Made by a program: the position numbers and the translations under genes. Under the pieces are notes generated by a model. It did not search any database. It saw nothing but the letters and a program-made list of their open reading frames with translations, and was not told the origin of the DNA. Source: Escherichia coli (GTDB taxonomy: Bacteria > Pseudomonadota > Gammaproteobacteria > Enterobacterales > Enterobacteriaceae). From it: 64,000 nucleotides of DNA. Position 1 is the stretch's first letter. The number at the start of each line of letters is the position of its first letter. The stretch lies in assembly GCF_045037415.1 (NCBI RefSeq), contig NZ_CP173438.1. The stretch is one strand, 5' to 3'. Below, in pieces: positions 23,902-31,172 of this stretch.

Positions 23902-24603
23902 CTATTTCATCGCTCCTTTCAGCCCGAACTTAGCTTTGATTTCTGCGATCTTCGCCAGAGCCTGTGCACGATTTAGAGGCCTACCGCCCATGACAGGAAG
24001 TTGTTTTACTGGTTCAGGTATAGCCTCACCACGGTTAATTCGCGCGGTCATACAGGCCAGTTCATCGGCAGCCTTGCGCCGTAATTCCGCGTCAGTCAAC
24101 GCATTGGCCCGCATGTTCTGATACAGGTTGGTAACCAGCCAGTAGTGCGCGTTTGATTTCCACGGATAAGACTCTGCATCCGGATACAGACCACGCTTCC
24201 GGCAATACTCGTAAACCATATCAACCAGCTCGCTGACGTTTGGCAGCCCGGCGGTAACGGATGCTTCTTCCCGGCACCATGCAACAAACTGCCCGGGTGA
24301 TGGCAGAAATGGTCTATTCTGCCGACGGGCAACACGCATTCCGTCGCTCACCTGCTCCATCGTGGTGATCCCGTTTTCCCGGAAAGCCAGAACCCACTGG
24401 CGGCGGATTTCGTTCAGTTCGTTCTGGTCACGATTAGCCAGGCTCGCCGGGAAAGTTGCCAGTAACTGGCTGAATACACCGTTGATTATCTGCGCTACCT
24501 GCTGTACCTGCGGCTTTTCGTCGTACTGTTCCGGCATGTTGTTGGCGATCCGACGCATCTGCTCACGGTCAAAGTTAATCATCTGTGCGGCGATGTTTTT
24601 CAT
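23902..24603 (-). CDS. P: Replication protein P (DnaB helicase loader)
   Basis: 233 aa, MKNIAAQMINFDREQMRRIANNMPEQYDEKPQVQQVAQIINGVFSQLLATFPASLANRDQNE... near-identical to lambda P. Confidence 0.95.
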   Translation of the reverse strand: MKNIAAQMINFDREQMRRIANNMPEQYDEKPQVQQVAQIINGVFSQLLATFPASLANRDQNELNEIRRQWVLAFRENGITTMEQVSDGMRVARRQNRPFLPSPGQFVAWCREEASVTAGLPNVSELVDMVYEYCRKRGLYPDAESYPWKSNAHYWLVTNLYQNMRANALTDAELRRKAADELACMTARINRGEAIPEPVKQLPVMGGRPLNRAQALAKIAEIKAKFGLKGAMK

Positions 24604-25529
24604 AGATCCACCCCGTAAATCCAGTCTGTGTTTGTCAGGTCGAGTTTTGGTTTGCTAGCTGTCACGCCTGCCTGTTGCTTGTTACGGTTGATTTCGAGTT
24701 GGGTCCACTTGTCGCGGAGTTTGGCCGGACTTAGCACGTTACCGGACCAGAAGTTGTCCTGGCATGCCCAGCGGAACAGCACGCACATGTCGCGGTGGTT
24801 ACGTCCGTCACGTTCACGCATCAGGCGGATATCGTTAGCCCACCCTGCAAAATTCGGTTTTCTGGCTGATGGCGCGATGGTCTTCACCATGTCAAACATC
24901 CACTCTGCGGCGGTCAGGTCTTCTGCTGTCCCCCACTTGCTGCCGCTCTGAATTGCAGCATCCGGTTTCACCACAGGAAGATCGTTTTCTGGTTGGTCAG
25001 AGGATTCGCCAGAATTCTCGGACGAAAAAGGTTTTATATTGTCTTTTGTTAGTTTGTCTTTTGTGTTTACCTGATTCGGGTAAACGCCTTTACCTGATTT
25101 GGGTAAACTTTTTTTACCTGATTCAGGTAAATTTACCTCTTTCAGGTAAACTTTATTTTTCTTACCTGATTCGGGTAATGTTGACCATTCACTGACCACA
25201 TTATTAATGCCGGTATTCCGCCCGCTCTGAATAAAAATCCCACGCTTTACCAGAACACTTTTTGCAGCAGAACACTTGTGCGGCAATATCCCGGTTAATT
25301 CGGAAAGTTGCTCGTTGCTAACCCAATCCAGTTTTTTATTAAAGCCATATGTTTTGCGCATGACAGCCAGAAAGACCAGAAGCTGGTGCTGTGTTAATCC
25401 GGCCAGCATCACAGCTTCCAGCAACTCATTTGCAATGCGCGTATAACCATCATCGAGATCTGCCACGCGCGGCTCCTTTTGTGCCGCATCCGGCACTGGA
25501 AAATTGAATATCTCAGCAGTGTTTGCCAT
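24600..25529 (-). CDS. O: Replication initiator O
   Basis: ORF 24600..25619; start placed at MANTAEIFNFPVPDAAQKEPRVADLDDGYTRIANELLEAV..., by analogy with lambda O (MTNTAKILNF...); ori iterons lie inside the gene; the C-terminal third resembles lambda O. Confidence 0.85.
   Translation of the reverse strand: MANTAEIFNFPVPDAAQKEPRVADLDDGYTRIANELLEAVMLAGLTQHQLLVFLAVMRKTYGFNKKLDWVSNEQLSELTGILPHKCSAAKSVLVKRGIFIQSGRNTGINNVVSEWSTLPESGKKNKVYLKEVNLPESGKKSLPKSGKGVYPNQVNTKDKLTKDNIKPFSSENSGESSDQPENDLPVVKPDAAIQSGSKWGTAEDLTAAEWMFDMVKTIAPSARKPNFAGWANDIRLMRERDGRNHRDMCVLFRWACQDNFWSGNVLSPAKLRDKWTQLEINRNKQQAGVTASKPKLDLTNTDWIYGVDL
25030..25179. other. Replication origin (ori): five roughly 17-bp iterons plus an adjacent AT-rich segment, inside O
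   Basis: Iterons tacctgattcgggtaaa / tacctgatttgggtaaa / tacctgattcaggtaaa / tacctctttcaggtaaa / tacctgattcgggtaat at 25068..25179; AT-rich gttttatattgtcttttgttagtttgtcttttgtgttt at 25030..25067; same layout as lambda ori. Confidence 0.8.
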
Positions 25530-25615
25530 AATTCCTCCCGCAATGAGTGTGTTACGATTTGCACCTGAAAGTCGGTTCTGTTCCAGCAGACCGGCTTTCG
25601 CCATTTCTGAACCTG

Positions 25616-26155
25616 TCATATCGCCCCCAGCATGGTAGTAACCATCGCCATCAATGGACCAGCCAGATCTGGGTCCACACGAAACATCGACACAATACCT
25701 TCACTAATTTCCTTCAGTTTCTGGTGGCGTGGTGCGTTGAGAATGACAGCCTGTTTTGCCTCACTGAGTTCCTTTTCCATTTCAGCCAACCTAGCCATGA
25801 AGCTATCCTGCTCAACCAGGTAACCGCGATATTCCAGCGGTAGTACCGCCAGAATTGCCGGGGTCAGTTCACGCACGTTATTTCGGTATTTTTCAGAATC
25901 GAATTTGTTATCGAGGAAGCGGAACAGCTTCTGGCGTGCACGGCTGACATCATCAGGGAAATCGATGGTGCCGCCGCCCTGCTCCAGATACTCATTCACA
26001 ATGAGTGTGGCAACGACATCCTGATTATCTACAGCCGACCAGGCGCGGACGGCATCACGGATTTTTTCGTGGCCTGGCACCTGTTTTGTTTGAGAACGAT
26101 TTATCACCGCAGTCGGGCTAAATCCGCTAGTCTGTTGGTATGTAAGTGGTTGCAT
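25616..26155 (-). CDS. YdaT-like protein in the cII position (Rac-type CII analogue / putative toxin-family domain)
   Basis: 179 aa between the Cro-like gene and O; segment ...LIVNEYLEQGGGTIDFPDD...RELTPAILAVLPLEYRGYL... resembles the recalled Rac YdaT pattern; assignment unverified. Confidence 0.5.
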   Translation of the reverse strand: MQPLTYQQTSGFSPTAVINRSQTKQVPGHEKIRDAVRAWSAVDNQDVVATLIVNEYLEQGGGTIDFPDDVSRARQKLFRFLDNKFDSEKYRNNVRELTPAILAVLPLEYRGYLVEQDSFMARLAEMEKELSEAKQAVILNAPRHQKLKEISEGIVSMFRVDPDLAGPLMAMVTTMLGAI

Positions 26156-26224
26156 AATTGACTCCTTTAGTTTGAATTGACTGTTAAGTTGATTGCTTAT
26201 TGTTAAAGAGCGTGAAATGGAAAT

Positions 26225-26455
26225 TTAAGCTGCGTTCTTTTCGGTGTGTGGAAACAACTTCGGAAGATCCGGGCGAATCTGGTATGCCTTCACTACTCCA
26301 CCAGTAGCCGTAACAATGCTGCCGACATGTTCAGGGGATACCTTTGCTTTGTTGTGAAGCCACTTATAGACGGCCTGCTGTGAAACTTCGCAAGCAGCGC
26401 CCAGTTTCTTTTGTGAACCAACGATATTGATCGCTGTTTTGATAGCTGGGTTCAT
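26225..26455 (-). CDS. Cro-like HTH regulator (YdaS/Cro family)
   Basis: 76 aa, divergent from the repressor gene; HTH-like segment GSQKKLGAACEVSQQAVYKWL; operator palindromes immediately upstream. Confidence 0.7.
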   Translation of the reverse strand: MNPAIKTAINIVGSQKKLGAACEVSQQAVYKWLHNKAKVSPEHVGSIVTATGGVVKAYQIRPDLPKLFPHTEKNAA

Positions 26456-26559
26456 AACAACCTCCGTGGTTAATTTGAATCAAGATTAAAACTATGGTTG
26501 TTTTTAGTCAACAACCATTTTCGTTTGATGGAATAAAACCTTGGTTGTACATTTGGACT
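26456..26559. promoter_or_regulatory. Right operator/promoter region (OR with divergent PR and PRM)
   Basis: Between divergent cro-like and repressor genes; 25-bp palindrome ATGGTTGTT-tttagtc-AACAACCAT at 26494..26518 and a further TGGTTGT half-site at 26541..26547; the repressor ATG (26560) has no Shine-Dalgarno sequence, consistent with a leaderless PRM transcript as in lambda. Confidence 0.6.
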
Positions 26560-27249
26560 ATGAAAACAACACTCTCAGAAAGACTTAAAGAAGCCAGATT
26601 AGCGCGAGGCCTTACACAAAAGGCGCTTGGGGATTTGGTCGGGGTTAGCCAGGCTGCTATTCAGAAAATCGAAACAGGGAAAGCTAATCAAACAACTAAA
26701 ATCGTGGAGATCGCGAACGCTTTGGGTGTGCGCGCAGAATGGTTATCTTCTGGCGTTGGAAATATGTCAGACAGTACAGTGCAACCAATACAATCAACTG
26801 TCAGCCATTCCAAATACTTCAAGATTGACGTTCTTGATATAGAAGTCAGTGCTGGGCCGGGAGTCATCAACCGTGAGTTTGTAGAAGTTCTACGCTCGGT
26901 TGAGTACTCGTTTGACGATGCTCGTCACATGTTCGATGGTAGGAAGGCGGAAAATATCCGCATCATTAACGTGCGTGGTGACAGCATGTCAGGAACGATC
27001 GAACCAGGTGATCTGCTGTTCGTTGATATCACAGTTAAATCTTTCGACGGTGATGGTATCTATGCGTTTCTGTACGACGACACAGCCCATGTAAAGCGCC
27101 TGCAAATGATGAAGGATAAGCTGCTGGTCATCTCTGATAACAAAAGCTACTCACCGTGGGACCCGATCGAGAAAGACGAGATGAACCGGGTGTTCATCTT
27201 CGGTAAGGTTATTGGGAGCATGCCGCAGACATATAGGAAGCATGGGTAG
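26560..27249 (+). CDS. CI-type prophage repressor (N-terminal XRE HTH, C-terminal S24/LexA-like peptidase domain)
   Basis: ORF 26494..27249; start at MKTTLSERLKEARLARGLTQKALGDLVGVSQAAIQKIETGK (HTH); C-terminal ...NVRGDSMSGTIEPGDLLFVD...HVKRL... has the Ser/Lys autocleavage dyad context. Confidence 0.85.
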   Translation: MKTTLSERLKEARLARGLTQKALGDLVGVSQAAIQKIETGKANQTTKIVEIANALGVRAEWLSSGVGNMSDSTVQPIQSTVSHSKYFKIDVLDIEVSAGPGVINREFVEVLRSVEYSFDDARHMFDGRKAENIRIINVRGDSMSGTIEPGDLLFVDITVKSFDGDGIYAFLYDDTAHVKRLQMMKDKLLVISDNKSYSPWDPIEKDEMNRVFIFGKVIGSMPQTYRKHG

Positions 27250-27370
27250 TACCAATTAAAAATTATCAACTGGGCATTGTGCTCATTCAGTAAAGAACTA
27301 ATTCCTATCTTTGCTCTAGGTAGTAATATTAAGCCACCGCAATAATATCTTTACCTAACGGCGTAAGAAT

Positions 27371-27400
27371 CCCGGTCACCGTGCCGGGTTTTCTTTTGCC
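27371..27400 (+). terminator. Candidate rho-independent terminator downstream of the repressor gene
   Basis: cccggtcaccgtgccggg hairpin followed by ttttctttt. Confidence 0.45.
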
Positions 27401-27489
27401 CTCCCCTCATCACACACACCGTTAAAAAAACCACCATAACCTCGCTTCAGTTATCGCTATGCGATTCAAGTCACAAAATAAATCCATCC

Positions 27490-27570
27490 TAAATACAACC
27501 AGTTATATCTAAAACAACCAATAAAACAACTTTTGTTGTTGACGATAAAACAACTATAGTTTTAAATAAG
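27490..27570 (+). promoter_or_regulatory. Left operator/promoter region (OL/pL-like)
   Basis: Clustered ACAAC/GTTGT half-sites, including the palindrome AACAACttttGTTGTT (27525..27540), sharing the half-site with OR; TTGACG -35-like hexamer at 27539..27544 with a TTAAAT -10 candidate 18 nt downstream; would drive the gam-bet-exo-xis-int strand. Confidence 0.45.
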
Positions 27571-27844
27571 TTCATCGCAACAACACAACGATACGGCAAC
27601 TACCTGATTCACCGTTGCGATGACCGCTTAGATCCGCAGTTTGAATTTCAGCAGGCTTCGGGGAGTGCGAGGGGTGAAACGGACGCGTGAACGTCGGTGT
27701 GACCAGCTGAAATTAACTCAACATTTCATACCTTAGTCGCTTCAACGAGGCGGCTTAGTTATGACAACCGGCGGCCATCCACCGCCTGAATACGCGCAGA
27801 AGTCTCTATATGTTCAGCAGCCCAGCTTACGGGCAGGAGTTTTT

Positions 27845-28051
27845 ATGGTTCATCAACATTACGGAACGCAGACCGTTAATCGCGGTGCGGTCATGCCAGG
27901 AATGCTGGTCAAACACAAAGATGGTACCTGGACTGCATCAGCTAATTTACGCGGACGGCTTTATCTGCATCGCGGCATCGAGCGCACTTATACCCGTGAT
28001 TTGCTCGTGGAAGTTTTTCTCGACGGACGCGGCAACGGCCTGAATCACTAA
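27845..28051 (+). CDS. Hypothetical small early-left-operon protein (kil/cIII position)
   Basis: ATG at 27845 preceded by caggag; 68 aa [68 protein letters not shown]; an alternative upstream ATG at 27761 lacks a Shine-Dalgarno sequence; no homolog recognised. Confidence 0.4.
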
Positions 28052-28126
28052 TCCCCTTTCCTGTTTACCTAATCAGCCCGGCATTTCGCAGGCGATATTT
28101 TCACAGCCATTTTCAGGAGTTCAGCC

Positions 28127-28423
28127 ATGAACGCTTATTACATTCAGGATCGTCTTGAGGCTCAAAGCTGGGCGCGTCACTACCAGCAGATCGCCCGTGA
28201 AGAGAAAGAGGCAGAACTGGCAGACGACATGGAAAAAGGTCTTCCACAGCACCTGTTTGAATCACTCTGCATCGATCATTTGCAACGCTGCGGGGCCAGC
28301 AAAAAAGCCATTACCCGTGCGTTTGATGACGATGTTGAGTTTCAGGAGCGCATGGCAGAACACATCCGGTACATGGTTGAAACCATTGCTCACCACCATG
28401 TTGATATTGATTCAGAGGTATAA
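28127..28423 (+). CDS. gam: Gam, RecBCD inhibitor (short GamS form)
   Basis: 98 aa, [98 protein letters not shown] matches lambda Gam. Confidence 0.9.
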
Positions 28424-28428
28424 AACGG

Positions 28429-29214
28429 ATGAGTACAGCACTCGCAACGCTGGCTGGGAAGCTGGCTGAACGTGTCGGCATGGATTCTGTCGACCCACAG
28501 GAACTGATCACCACTCTTCGTCAGACGGCATTTAAAGGTGATGCCAGCGATGCGCAGTTCATCGCATTGCTGATCGTCGCCAACCAGTACGGCCTTAATC
28601 CGTGGACGAAAGAAATTTACGCCTTCCCTGATAAGCAGAACGGCATCGTTCCGGTGGTGGGCGTTGATGGCTGGTCCCGCATCATCAATGAAAACCAGCA
28701 GTTTGATGGCATGGACTTTGAGCAGGACAATGAATCATGTACGTGCCGGATTTACCGCAAAGACCGCAATCATCCGATCTGCGTTACCGAATGGATGGAT
28801 GAATGCCGCCGCGAACCATTCAAAACTCGCGAAGGCAGAGAAATCACGGGGCCGTGGCAGTCGCATCCCAAACGGATGTTACGGCATAAAGCCATGATTC
28901 AGTGTGCCCGTCTGGCCTTCGGATTTGCTGGTATCTATGACAAGGATGAAGCCGAGCGCATTGTCGAAAATACTGCATACACTGCGGAACGTCAGCCGGA
29001 ACGCGACATCACTCCGGTTAACGATGAAACCATGCAGGAGATTAACACTCTGCTGATTGCCCTGGACAAAACATGGGATGACGACTTATTGCCGCTCTGT
29101 TCCCAGATATTTCGCCGCGACATTCGCGCATCGTCAGAACTGACACAGGCCGAAGCAGTGAAAGCTCTTGGATTCCTGAAACAGAAAGCCACTGAGCAGA
29201 AGGTGGCAGCATGA
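28429..29214 (+). CDS. bet: Bet (Red-beta) single-strand annealing recombinase
   Basis: 261 aa, [72 protein letters not shown]... essentially identical to lambda Bet. Confidence 0.95.
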
Positions 29215-29891
29215 CACCGGACATTATCCTGCAGCGTACCGGGATCGACGTGAGAGCTGTCGAACAGGGGGATGATGCATGGCACAAATTACGGCTCGGC
29301 GTCATCACCGCTTCAGAAGTTCACAACGTGATAGCAAAGCCCCGCTCAGGAAAGAAGTGGCCTGACATGAAAATGTCCTACTTCCACACCCTGCTGGCTG
29401 AGGTTTGCACCGGTGTGGCTCCGGAAGTTAATGCTAAGGCGCTGGCGTGGGGAAAACAGTACGAGAACGACGCCAGAACCCTGTTTGAATTCACTTCCGG
29501 CGTGAATGTTACTGAATCCCCGATCATCTATCGCGACGAAAGTATGCGCACCGCCTGCTCTCCCGATGGTTTATGCAGTGACGGCAATGGCCTTGAGCTG
29601 AAATGCCCGTTTACCTCCCGGGATTTCATGAAGTTCCGGCTCGGTGGTTTCGAGGCCATAAAGTCGGCTTACATGGCCCAGGTGCAGTACAGCATGTGGG
29701 TGACACGAAAAGATGCCTGGTACTTTGCCAACTATGACCCACGAATGAAGCGTGAAGGCCTGCATTATGTCGTGGTTGAGCGGGATGAAAAGTACATGGC
29801 GAGTTTTGACGAGATGGTGCCGGAGTTCATCGAAAAAATGGACGAAGCACTGGCTGAAATTGGTTTTGTATTTGGAGAGCAATGGCGATGA
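29211..29891 (+). CDS. exo: Lambda exonuclease (Red-alpha)
   Basis: 226 aa, [65 protein letters not shown]... essentially identical to lambda Exo. Confidence 0.95.
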
Positions 29892-30070
29892 CCCATCCTC
29901 ACGATAATATCCGGGTAGGCGCGATCACTTTCGTCTACTCCGTTACAAAGCGAGGCTGGGTATTTCACGGTCTTTCTGTTATCCGAAATCCGCTGAAAGC
30001 CCAGCGGCTGGCTGAGGAGATAAATAATAAACGGGGGGCGGTATGCACAAAGCATCTCCTGTTGAGTTAA
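29882..30070 (+). CDS. Small conserved lambda-region ORF downstream of exo (orf63-like)
   Basis: 62 aa, [62 protein letters not shown]; position and recalled similarity to the lambda exo-xis region ORFs. Confidence 0.55.
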
Positions 30071-30234
30071 GAACGAGTATTGATTTGGCACATAGCCTTG
30101 CTCAAATTGGAGTCAGGTTTGTGCCAATACCAGCAGAAACAGACGAAGAATTTCATACGTTAGCCACATCCCTTTCACAAAAGCTGGAAATGATGGTGGC
30201 GAAAGCAGAAGCAGATGAGAGAGACCAGGTATGA
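30043..30234 (+). CDS. Small conserved lambda-region ORF (orf61-like)
   Basis: 63 aa, [63 protein letters not shown]. Confidence 0.5.
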   Translation: MHKASPVELRTSIDLAHSLAQIGVRFVPIPAETDEEFHTLATSLSQKLEMMVAKAEADERDQV

Positions 30235-30310
30235 CAACCACTGAATGCATTTTTCTGGCAGCGGGCTTCATATTCTGTGTGCTTATGCTTGCCGACATGG
30301 GGCTTGTTCA

Positions 30311-30526
30311 GTGACACCTCAGCAAGAAAATGCCCTTCGCAGCATTGCCCGTCAGGCTAATTCTGAAATCAAAAAAGTCAGACAGCAGTTTCCGGATAAA
30401 AACGTCAATGACATTTGCCGTAGCGTACTGAAGAAGCACCGCGAAACGGTAACGCTGAAGGGATTCACACCGACTCATTTAAGCCTGGCAATCGGCATGT
30501 TAAACGGCGTCTTTAAGGAACGATGA
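30311..30526 (+). CDS. Small exo-xis region ORF (orf60a-like), possible GTG start
   Basis: In frame with ORF 30245..30526; (M)TPQQENALRSIARQANSEIKKVRQQFPDKNVNDICRSVLKKHRETVTLKGFTPTHLSLAIGMLNGVFKER; start uncertain. Confidence 0.4.
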   Translation: MTPQQENALRSIARQANSEIKKVRQQFPDKNVNDICRSVLKKHRETVTLKGFTPTHLSLAIGMLNGVFKER

Positions 30527-30624
30527 ACATGAAAAGCAAAATTATCAGGGAGCTACAGGCTCCTTTTTTATTGTTCGCATTCACCCTCAAGCGTATTAAC
30601 CAACAGTTCAGGGATTAATGAAAG

Positions 30625-30846
30625 ATGGCAGACATCATTGATTCAGCATCAGAAATAGAAGAATTACAGCGCAACACAGCAATAAAAATGCGCCGCCTGA
30701 ACTACCTGGCTGTATCTGCCACTCATTGTTGTGAGTGTGGCGATCCGATAGATGAACGAAGACGCCTGGCCGTTCAGGGTTGTCGGACTTGCGCCAGTTG
30801 CCAGCAAGATCTGGAGCTTATCCGCAAACAAAGGGGGATTAAGTGA
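30625..30846 (+). CDS. TraR/DksA-family C4 zinc-finger protein (lambda orf73-like)
   Basis: 73 aa with CCEC...CRTCASC four-cysteine motif typical of TraR/DksA-type zinc fingers. Confidence 0.6.
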   Translation: MADIIDSASEIEELQRNTAIKMRRLNYLAVSATHCCECGDPIDERRRLAVQGCRTCASCQQDLELIRKQRGIK

Positions 30847-31172
30847 TGGCTAACCTGCAACTTGCTGTTAAAAGTGAATACTTCGATGCCATGATTCGCG
30901 GAGAGAAAACGGAAGAGTATCGCTTGTGTAATGACTACTGGAATAAGCGAATTATGTTCCGGGAATATGACCGCCTGATTATCACAAAGGGATATCCGAA
31001 GCGCGACGATTCCAGTCGCAGAATTGATGTTCCGTATGACGGATATGAAGTGAAGACAATCACACATCCGCACTTTGGCGATAAACCGGTAAAGGTGTTC
31101 GCTATAAAGGTGAATATCAGCACTGAATATCAATCCGCACAACACAAGGTCAAGAATGTTCAGAGTGATTGA
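30843..31172 (+). CDS. Hypothetical protein (109 aa) in the exo-xis accessory region
   Basis: ORF with 4-nt overlap to the upstream gene (operon-like); MMANLQLAVKSEYFDAMIRGEKTEEYRLCNDYWNKRIMFREYDRLIITKGYPKRDD...; family not recognised. Confidence 0.45.
   Translation: MMANLQLAVKSEYFDAMIRGEKTEEYRLCNDYWNKRIMFREYDRLIITKGYPKRDDSSRRIDVPYDGYEVKTITHPHFGDKPVKVFAIKVNISTEYQSAQHKVKNVQSD

Follow-up and report, generated by a model that had tools for sequence, protein, structure and literature searches.

An Escherichia coli prophage leader without N, nut or put sites between pL and kil, and its conserved two-hairpin RNA element

Introduction

Lambdoid phages have two textbook routes by which early transcription proceeds past terminators, the N protein with the nut sites of lambda and the put RNA of HK022. 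Here, we analyzed the leader of the early-left (pL) transcript in a lambdoid prophage of Escherichia coli (contig NZ_CP173438.1), located between the repressor gene and kil; the whole stretch of DNA analyzed, 64,000 nucleotides in length, is called the window. The slots follow the same order as in lambda (repressor, OL/pL, leader, kil-gam-bet-exo), and a consensus boxA is found at the nutR-equivalent site of the window. Unlike in lambda, however, an N gene is missing, the pL leader contains neither boxA nor boxB, and kil is not preceded by a terminator. HK022 with its put RNA, as well as HK639, HK75 and phiEt88 with put-like RNAs, resemble the window as lambdoid phages which lack N and carry a structured RNA directly after pL. 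The put stem II core (GGCGGGYUCAGG...CGGCAAU) is missing in the window leader, however, and a copy on the pR side is missing as well. N-independent early-left expression through the absence of the first terminator is the best-supported account of this locus, and we hold it with moderate confidence.

The prophage, one end of which lies in the window, is a lambdoid one of the DLP12-like/Bievrevirus lineage, and the interval from its repressor gene to kil bounds its immunity region on the left. Over 27250-28130, the window matches Escherichia phage PhiR34_1 and phage Turner at 99% identity, and the close relatives 4A7 and Perceval belong to the genus Bievrevirus. In the prophage map, the virion genes are lambda-like and the nin/Q/lysis region is DLP12-like.

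Anatomy of the leader

The repressor stop (27249) and the ATG of kil (27845) are separated by 595 bp. The first 320 bp contain the repressor 3' end, a terminator and the operators, and approximately 270 nt (roughly 27574-27844) form the transcribed leader. The features of this part are as follows.

27511..27554, + strand: OL operators, three AAAACAAC repeats (27511, 27523, 27547) and the palindrome AACAAC-TTTT-GTTGTT
27539..27567, + strand: pL promoter, -35 TTGACG at 27539-27544, 17-bp spacer, -10 TTAAAT at 27562-27567
27573..27622, + strand: predicted 5'-terminal stem-loop of the pL transcript, CAUCGCAAC / GUUGCGAUG, 9 bp, 32-nt loop
27636..27718, + strand: central G-rich domain, putative 9-bp long-range stem AAUUUCAGC (27644-27652) / GCUGAAAUU (27706-27714) around two small hairpins, weakly supported
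27727..27786, + strand: conserved kil-proximal RNA element, consisting of CAUACC, hairpin 1, linker UUAUGACAACC and hairpin 2
27732-27758, outer pairs 27727-27763, + strand: hairpin 1
27770-27786, + strand: hairpin 2, GGCGG-CCAUCCA-CCGCC
27845..28051, + strand: kil, phi80/Rac KilR-type FtsZ inhibitor of 68 amino acids, first early-left gene (PHROG 294, E 1e-38; Shine-Dalgarno GGAG at 27836-27839)

OL/pL-like motifs had been noted in a preliminary description of this stretch, and they are present as three AAAACAAC repeats within 27511-27554 and a TTGACG/TTAAAT promoter. The octamer occurs 14 times in the window, where 3.2 copies are expected, and is also found at OR (26497 on the - strand, 26563 on the + strand). 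Two other immunity types occur among phages which share the downstream sequence, and the homology of these phages with the window sets in at 27574-27575, right after their own -10 boxes; the pL transcript therefore probably starts near A27574. The first early-left gene had been placed at 27846; the start of kil is at 27845.

Search for N, nut and put

No N-like gene was found between pL and the first early-left gene, in agreement with the preliminary description. The list of open reading frames (ORFs) contains no + strand ORF of at least 60 amino acids wholly inside the interval. The earlier statement that about 600 bp are free of such ORFs therefore holds for the 595 bp in that sense, but a 96-amino-acid ORF (27761-28051) begins inside. 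The leader, compared in all reading frames with Pfam and PHROGs at E values up to 1, gave no match. For tblastn, the N proteins of lambda, P22 and phage 21, Nun of HK022 (from the HK022 record) and the phi80 'N' ORF were used as queries. Over the whole window these searches returned noise (best E 0.04-3), with nothing significant in the interval. In annotated relatives, Q is the sole antiterminator named.

The window was scanned for boxA (GCTCTTTAACAA) with up to 2 mismatches. The pL leader (27574-27845) contains no boxA at this threshold and hence no nutL. The one exact site of the scan is on the pR side (26200-26211, - strand); two sites with 2 mismatches (37942 and 48567) lie outside both early leaders. 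Neither an N-family ORF nor a canonical boxA/boxB site is therefore present in the interval, the sole canonical boxA being located outside it, at the nutR-equivalent position. The ops element GGCGGTAGnnTG was not found in 27570-27860 with up to 3 mismatches, and the comparison of 27200-28200 with Rfam, on both strands and at E values up to 10, yielded four chance-level matches, all far under their gathering scores.

26200..26212, - strand: boxA with a perfect match to the consensus (CGCUCUUUAACAA), in the spacer between cro and cII of the pR transcript, at the nutR-equivalent site; no boxB hairpin after it

The chance expectation of this boxA 12-mer in the 69-nt spacer is about 4e-6. Relatives with other immunity regions carry a pR-side boxA followed by a GGCUGA-NNNN-UCAGCC hairpin, and in addition a boxA in the pL leader. 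In the window-type variant L087, 12-13 extra bases at the pR boxA form the hairpin GACUG-AUUAA-CAGUC. In 4A7 and Perceval, which have the same leader, no boxA was detected in the 3.5 kb examined on each side. The pR-side boxA of the window is either functional in an rrn-like manner or a relic, both being possible; in neither case does it turn the pL leader into a nut site.

A put-like element of the HK022 type had been suggested for the leader and was not confirmed. A covariance model was built from seven putL/putR RNAs extracted from HK022, phiEt88, HK639, CobraSix and PdC23. Its consensus is the two-stem put fold with seven compensatory pairs, and it recovers the put RNAs of HK639 and CobraSix at 89-96 bits. 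Applied to 24000-31000 of the window with filters off, the best score was 5.8 bits (E 1.4), with no match in the leader on the + strand. The loci of phi80, HK225, KO-TP1, 4A7 and Perceval also gave nothing with this model. Local alignment of the leader to the sense strand of the pR operon gave no second copy (score 25, shuffle mean 24.1). An exact 15-mer GTCGCTTCAACGAGG at about 60687-60701 (- strand) was considered as a leader copy and rejected as a coincidence; it lies inside an unrelated coding region and forms no hairpin. On these tests of sequence, fold and copy number, the leader is not a member of the HK022-type put family.

Proposed early-left transcription without a first terminator

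On the + strand, no terminator-like site was found from 27574 through kil-gam-bet-exo, the first one being located at 30547.

28127..29891, + strand: gam, bet and exo (Red recombination genes), early-left, downstream of kil
30547..30575, + strand: first terminator-like site of the pL operon, 8-bp stem and TTTTATTGTT, from a consensus scan only

Because there is no terminator-like site between pL and exo, the genes kil, gam, bet and exo would be transcribed upon removal of the repressor. The leader of about 270 nt would link pL directly to these genes and be transcribed once the repressor leaves OL, and on a transcript which lacks N, nutL, put and tL1 the polymerase would reach the first early-left genes without a phage antiterminator. 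The leader itself appears to be modular, with a 5' stem-loop, a G-rich middle and the two-hairpin element. N-independent early-left expression, one of the two options named in the preliminary description, is thus favored by the lack of N and nutL, by the terminator-free path from pL to kil-gam-bet-exo and by the lack of the extra gene and terminator of the phi80 type described below.

The hairpin with T-run at 30547-30575 is situated about 3 kb downstream, after the orf61-like gene and before the TraR-like one. As the earliest candidate terminator in the early-left operon, it would have an effect on the expression of int from pL. In the region of this site, the annotated relative names no excisionase.

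The leader (27570-27850) is present in 2230 of 5426 complete E. coli genomes (41%), mostly with at least 95% identity and as a single copy; carriers include ST131, strain 536 and O157:H7/O55:H7. The window-type leader was found in E. coli only, and the same leader stands behind three different immunity regions.

A 5' hairpin shared with other pL leaders

The preliminary description had pointed to a 9-bp complementarity in the leader. The complementarity is real, but CATCGCAAC is located at 27573-27581 and not at 27562-27570, and GTTGCGATG at 27614-27622 and not at 27613-27621. The predicted folding energy of the segment 27573-27623 is -11.6 kcal/mol (z = -3.0), a value reached by 2 of 200 shuffled sequences. 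The description of a structured leader applies to such sub-elements, which fold beyond chance; the leader as a whole is not unusually structured (z = -0.5 for 27565-27850 and z = +0.5 for 27574-27723).

The first 28 nt of the leader (CAUCGCAACAACACAACGAUACGGCAAC) are the only part which aligns with other pL leaders (score 46, shuffle maximum 26), with homologous 5' ends in the leaders of L120, L062, phi80 and HK639. HK639 and CobraSix share with the start of the window leader the homologous 5'-terminal hairpin motif AUCGAAACGAAACAUCGA. A short stem closing an A/C-rich loop opens the pL transcripts of phi80, KO-TP1, HK225, HK639, CobraSix and phiEt88, and a compensatory change of a C:G to an A:U pair distinguishes L120 (CAUCGC/GCGAUG) from L062 (CAUCGA/UCGAUG). 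The partner strand of the 5' arm is located further away in the window. This long-range stem is kept in the O157-type variant in spite of unrelated intervening 30 nt, C-to-U changes keep G.U pairs, and the stem is retained across three immunity types. The 36 distinct variants of the 5' hairpin and the central domain differ at too few sites to carry a covariation signal.

In HK639, the shared hairpin lies upstream of put, which follows about 45 nt past it, and is not part of put; in the phi80-type leaders it is followed by the boxA-like sequence GCUUUUUAACAA. Because the hairpin precedes put in the former and the boxA-like site in the latter, the comparison identifies it as a common 5' module and not as the antiterminator of these phages. 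The singled-out stem is homologous to it, and its earlier interpretation as an antitermination element is therefore not upheld. A hairpin at the extreme 5' end is the classic protection of E. coli mRNAs from 5'-end-dependent decay, as in ompA. Like the stabilizing stem-loops of the ompA type, the window hairpin would be stable and start about 0-2 nt from the 5' end predicted here, but its loop of 32 nt is unusually large in comparison. By analogy, the most likely role of the 5' stem-loop would be to shield the mRNA from this type of decay.

A conserved two-hairpin element upstream of kil

The kil-proximal element is the best-supported of the predicted structures of the leader and, judged from folding and comparative data, a well-supported RNA structure. 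Its folding z score is -5.0, and none of 200 shuffled sequences folds as well. When 73 distinct variants from several genera of Enterobacteriaceae are aligned, hairpin 1 shows seven pairs with changes on both sides. Its positions are paired in 98.4% of cells, compared to 32-52% if the partner is slid by 1-3 columns, and its covariation score is 0.361 versus about 0.05 in the control. Polymorphisms within the E. coli lineage also keep the pairing (U.G to U:A at 27737/27753; C:G to U.G at 27738 and 27740). The apical loops of hairpin 1 are variable (AAC, ACC, AAA, GAU and the stable tetraloops UUCG and UACG), which argues for a role as a structure rather than as a boxB-like recognition loop; lambda boxB differs from hairpin 1 in this respect. 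The linker UUAUGACAACC, which includes an AUG at 27761, and hairpin 2 are nearly invariant, in part imposed by the search pattern. In hairpin 2, four of five changes are C-to-U and G.U pairing is kept.

A BLAST search with the leader located 27724-27790 also in phi80, HK225 and phages of Klebsiella and Enterobacter. By a pattern scan, the element was found in more than 120 viral contigs and in prophages of Enterobacter, Citrobacter, Trabulsiella and Huaxiibacter species; its hosts comprise these four genera, Escherichia and Klebsiella. Rfam has no entry for the element, and searching the open literature by its sequence led to no paper. In about 5% of the variants (HK639 = L012, L028, L057, L105, L126, L144), hairpin 2 is followed by a U-tract, e.g., CCGCCACUUUUUUUGUUUU. 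With this U-tract the element resembles a terminator or a small RNA (sRNA)-like unit of about 65 nt, which is not the case in the window.

27761..28051, + strand: 96-codon ORF with its AUG (MTTGGHPPP...) inside the interval, upstream of kil and in one frame with it in the window

In relatives, this ORF is a separate one of 16-21 codons or is out of frame with kil. A stalling leader peptide with a polyproline stretch (MTTGGHPPP) was considered. It is weakened by the variation of C-terminus and frame, and also by the loss of PPP through C-to-U changes which keep hairpin 2 paired. As peptide tail, frame and prolines vary while hairpin 2 stays paired, the constraint on the element appears to act at the RNA level and not on a peptide. 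The element may act post-transcriptionally, by affecting how the message of the toxic kil gene and the genes after it is translated or processed, or how stable it is, a role which we propose with low confidence.

Another non-coding RNA in a comparable position is the KilS sRNA (b4833) in the kilR leader of Rac. As in the window, it is located upstream of a KilR-family FtsZ inhibitor, which is the first toxic early-left gene. However, KilS shares no sequence similarity with the element and has its own intrinsic terminator, whereas the element of the window has none, and KilS was rejected as a relative. In Rac of E. coli K-12 (L137, 4406-4503), KilS is annotated about 175 nt upstream of kilR, a position analogous to that of the element.

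The calls of kil itself disagree in GenBank. In PhiR34_1, an alternative-frame ORF of 77 amino acids (27810-28043, + strand) is annotated in place of kil (27845-28051, + strand). In PhiR47_2 and Perceval, a 'Kil' of 128-139 amino acids running through the leader is annotated, and the NCBI pipeline calls a Kil of 68 amino acids. A 2025 paper on O157:H7 has the Rac-type kilR as its subject and not the kil gene of the window.

Central domain and arginine-rich frame

The central domain folds with z = -1.7 (10 of 200 shuffled sequences as good) and contains 20 G versus 7 C per 40 nt. It is 94-96% identical to relatives, compared to 97-100% for kil, gam and bet. Because its identity is not above that of these genes, its conservation reflects recent common descent. 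Compared with the leaders of phi80, HK639 and L120, no homology was found past the first 28 nt of the leader.

27641..27736, + strand: arginine-rich 31-codon ORF with TTG start (alternative GTG at 27674 behind GGAG at 27662), rejected as a gene

The arginine-rich frame (…RLRGVRGVKRTRERRCDQLK…) superficially recalls the arginine-rich motif of N. It was rejected as a gene since its stop TAG at 27734 is CAG in 27 of 36 variants, in which the frame then runs into kil. An arginine-rich ORF, or a fusion of an arginine-rich motif to Kil, was rejected as well, because 2-nt indels shift the frame in other variants and no family match was obtained.

Comparison with phi80-type leaders

Nearly all other carriers of the element have a variable gene and an intrinsic terminator directly upstream of it. 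This arrangement is seen in phi80, HK225, KO-TP1 and ENT1 and in over 60 variants from metagenomes or isolates, and a conserved leader of about 400 nt with boxA is located upstream of the variable gene. The phi80 'N' ORF is one such variable gene and belongs to PHROG 25091, a PHROG of unknown function. Phages of the phi80 type (X13065; HK225, KO-TP1, ENT1) thus have the same kil family, the two-hairpin element and a homologous 5' transcript hairpin in common with the window. However, their leaders of about 400 nt contain the boxA-like GCUUUUUAACAA, a gene in the N position and an intrinsic terminator before the element, none of which is present in the window. In the window type, a short boxA-free leader is joined straight to the element.

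The phi80-type leaders (L003 = phi80 2270-2690; L009, L019, L097, L099, L120) are conserved across Escherichia and Klebsiella phages. The hairpin GGCGGACAGCAAGUCGCC stands upstream of their boxA-like sequence and a structured stretch rich in G and A downstream of it, and they may represent an uncharacterised antitermination leader. Two further pL leaders (L029, L112) are hybrids: after the 5' half of a put-like stem I (GUCGAACGGCGC), they continue with a consensus boxA in place of put stem II. This suggests a modular exchange of put-type and boxA-type leaders.

Weighing of the explanations

Several points weigh against N-independent expression through the absence of the first terminator. We infer the start site, the read-through and the absence of Rho-dependent termination in the untranslated stretch of about 190 nt, the first 40 nt of which are C-rich and G-poor. 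Since the TraR-like gene and the integrase gene come after the terminator-like site at 30547, the late early-left genes may still need some mechanism of read-through. The perfect pR-side boxA suggests Nus-factor-dependent modification in this phage, and the pL leader could therefore hold an unrecognised Nus loading site. The account does not cover the central domain (27636-27718), and the role which it assigns to the kil-proximal element is speculative: the GAG(G) of the element is 11 nt away from the AUG, which is long for Shine-Dalgarno spacing, and the PPP codons are not conserved across other genera (PLP, PPS or PPT).

A different history, in which the leader is mostly debris of a shortened phi80-type nutL leader, N-position gene and terminator, with the 5' hairpin and the element kept and the middle neutral, is possible but rather unlikely. 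It would agree with the alignment of just the first 28 nt to other pL leaders and with the boxA, the long structured leader and the variable gene which relatives have at the same place. The nutR-like site of the window also looks reduced, with a boxA and no hairpin (L087, with its 12-13 extra bases, forms one), and the conservation of the central domain (94-96%) is not above that of neighboring genes. However, the leader is kept whole behind three immunity regions, 41% of complete E. coli genomes carry it, partly deleted intermediates were not seen, and conservation at background level is no proof of neutrality. We consider it unlikely, and more so than debris, that the leader (27636-27718 or 27727-27786) contains a new cis-acting antiterminator RNA, unrelated to HK022 put, for read-through at 30547 and beyond. 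Its location right after pL would be that of putL and nutL, and the phage lacks N, yet has terminator-like sites further down both early operons. The G-rich central domain has GAACG/GUCGG strings which recall put and the phi80-type leader, and the covarying two-hairpin element is always located between pL and the early-left genes in many phages. The put model, however, gives at most 5.8 bits, and there is no pR copy; put and nut, as well as the boxA sites in relatives, occur as left/right pairs. The central domain (z = -1.7) shows no covariation and no conservation above flanking genes. The element, for its part, has freely varying loops and, in phi80-like phages, sits downstream of the terminator which it would need to overcome. 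Taken more broadly, there is a small chance that the leader represents a new class of cis-acting RNA which confers resistance to termination in a lineage without N and put, or a new riboregulator which gates the toxic kil.

A host-only complex of the rrn type, in which NusB/NusE/NusA/NusG/SuhB load at a degenerate boxA-type site in the pL leader without any phage protein, appears quite improbable. The perfect CGCUCUUUAACAA in the cro-cII spacer, expected by chance at about 4e-6, and the boxA in both pL and pR leaders of relatives would be in line with it, but the pL leader has no boxA at up to 2 mismatches, and 4A7 and Perceval share the leader and have no boxA on either side within 3.5 kb. 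The least probable explanation, which we regard as highly improbable, is a small arginine-rich N-like protein, either as a peptide of 20-31 amino acids (MKRTRERRCDQLK..., from GTG 27674 or TTG 27641) or, in most relatives, as an N-terminal extension of Kil (139-codon open frame). The leader frame has an R-x-R-E-R-R core which resembles the RRRERR motif of lambda N. A GGAG stands 8 nt before GTG 27674, this GTG is ATG in 3 variants, and 5 of 10 common polymorphisms are synonymous in the frame, which is open into kil in 27 of 36 variants; some GenBank records give Kil 128-139 amino acids. Nevertheless, the frame matches no family, and tblastn gave no match to N or Nun. The limits of the ORF vary, with a stop that is present here and missing in most variants and 2-nt indels in others. 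A 20-amino-acid peptide would be without the NusA- and polymerase-binding parts of N, and the leader offers no boxB-like target. G27753A changes G to D in the frame, yet improves a hairpin pair, and the NCBI pipeline calls the 68-amino-acid Kil.

Other features of the locus

26563..27249, + strand: cI-type (S24/LexA-like) repressor gene (PHROG 4, E 3e-72; annotated cI in PhiR34_1; ORF open from 26494)
27371..27398, + strand: intrinsic terminator (CCCGGTCACCGTGCCGGG + TTTTCTTTTG), end of the repressor transcript

On the + strand ('leftward' in lambda terms), the genes for the S24 repressor, kil, gam, bet, exo, orf63/orf61-like, TraR-like and integrase follow one another. The - strand carries a YdaS-like cro (26455-26225), a YdaT-family 'cII' (26155-25616) and then O and P. 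The immunity region is Rac-like and not lambda-like, with a 'cII' that belongs to the YdaT family (Pfam PF06254, E 9e-30); a closely matching O157:H7 locus annotates the gene in the cro position as YdaS family. The slot which is equivalent to lambda rexAB, between repressor and pL (27250-27500 in the window), holds only the terminator here and is otherwise empty. In the loci L002, L007, L008, L138, L139 and L140 it contains varied cargo, namely GevT/GevA, an ASCH-domain pair, a SIR2-family protein (in O157:H7) or a HipA-family kinase with DUF3037.

Significance

The lineage is very common, includes the active phages PhiR34_1, 4A7 and Perceval, and has neither N/nut nor put on the pL side. It is notable chiefly for this abundance and for the uncharacterised covarying RNA element before kil. 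If N-independent early-left expression through the absence of the first terminator is true, Kil, as an FtsZ inhibitor, and the Red genes would be immediate-early functions, controlled only by the repressor and the leader RNA. This would have a bearing on prophage toxicity, on the dynamics of induction and on recombineering-type functions in natural isolates.

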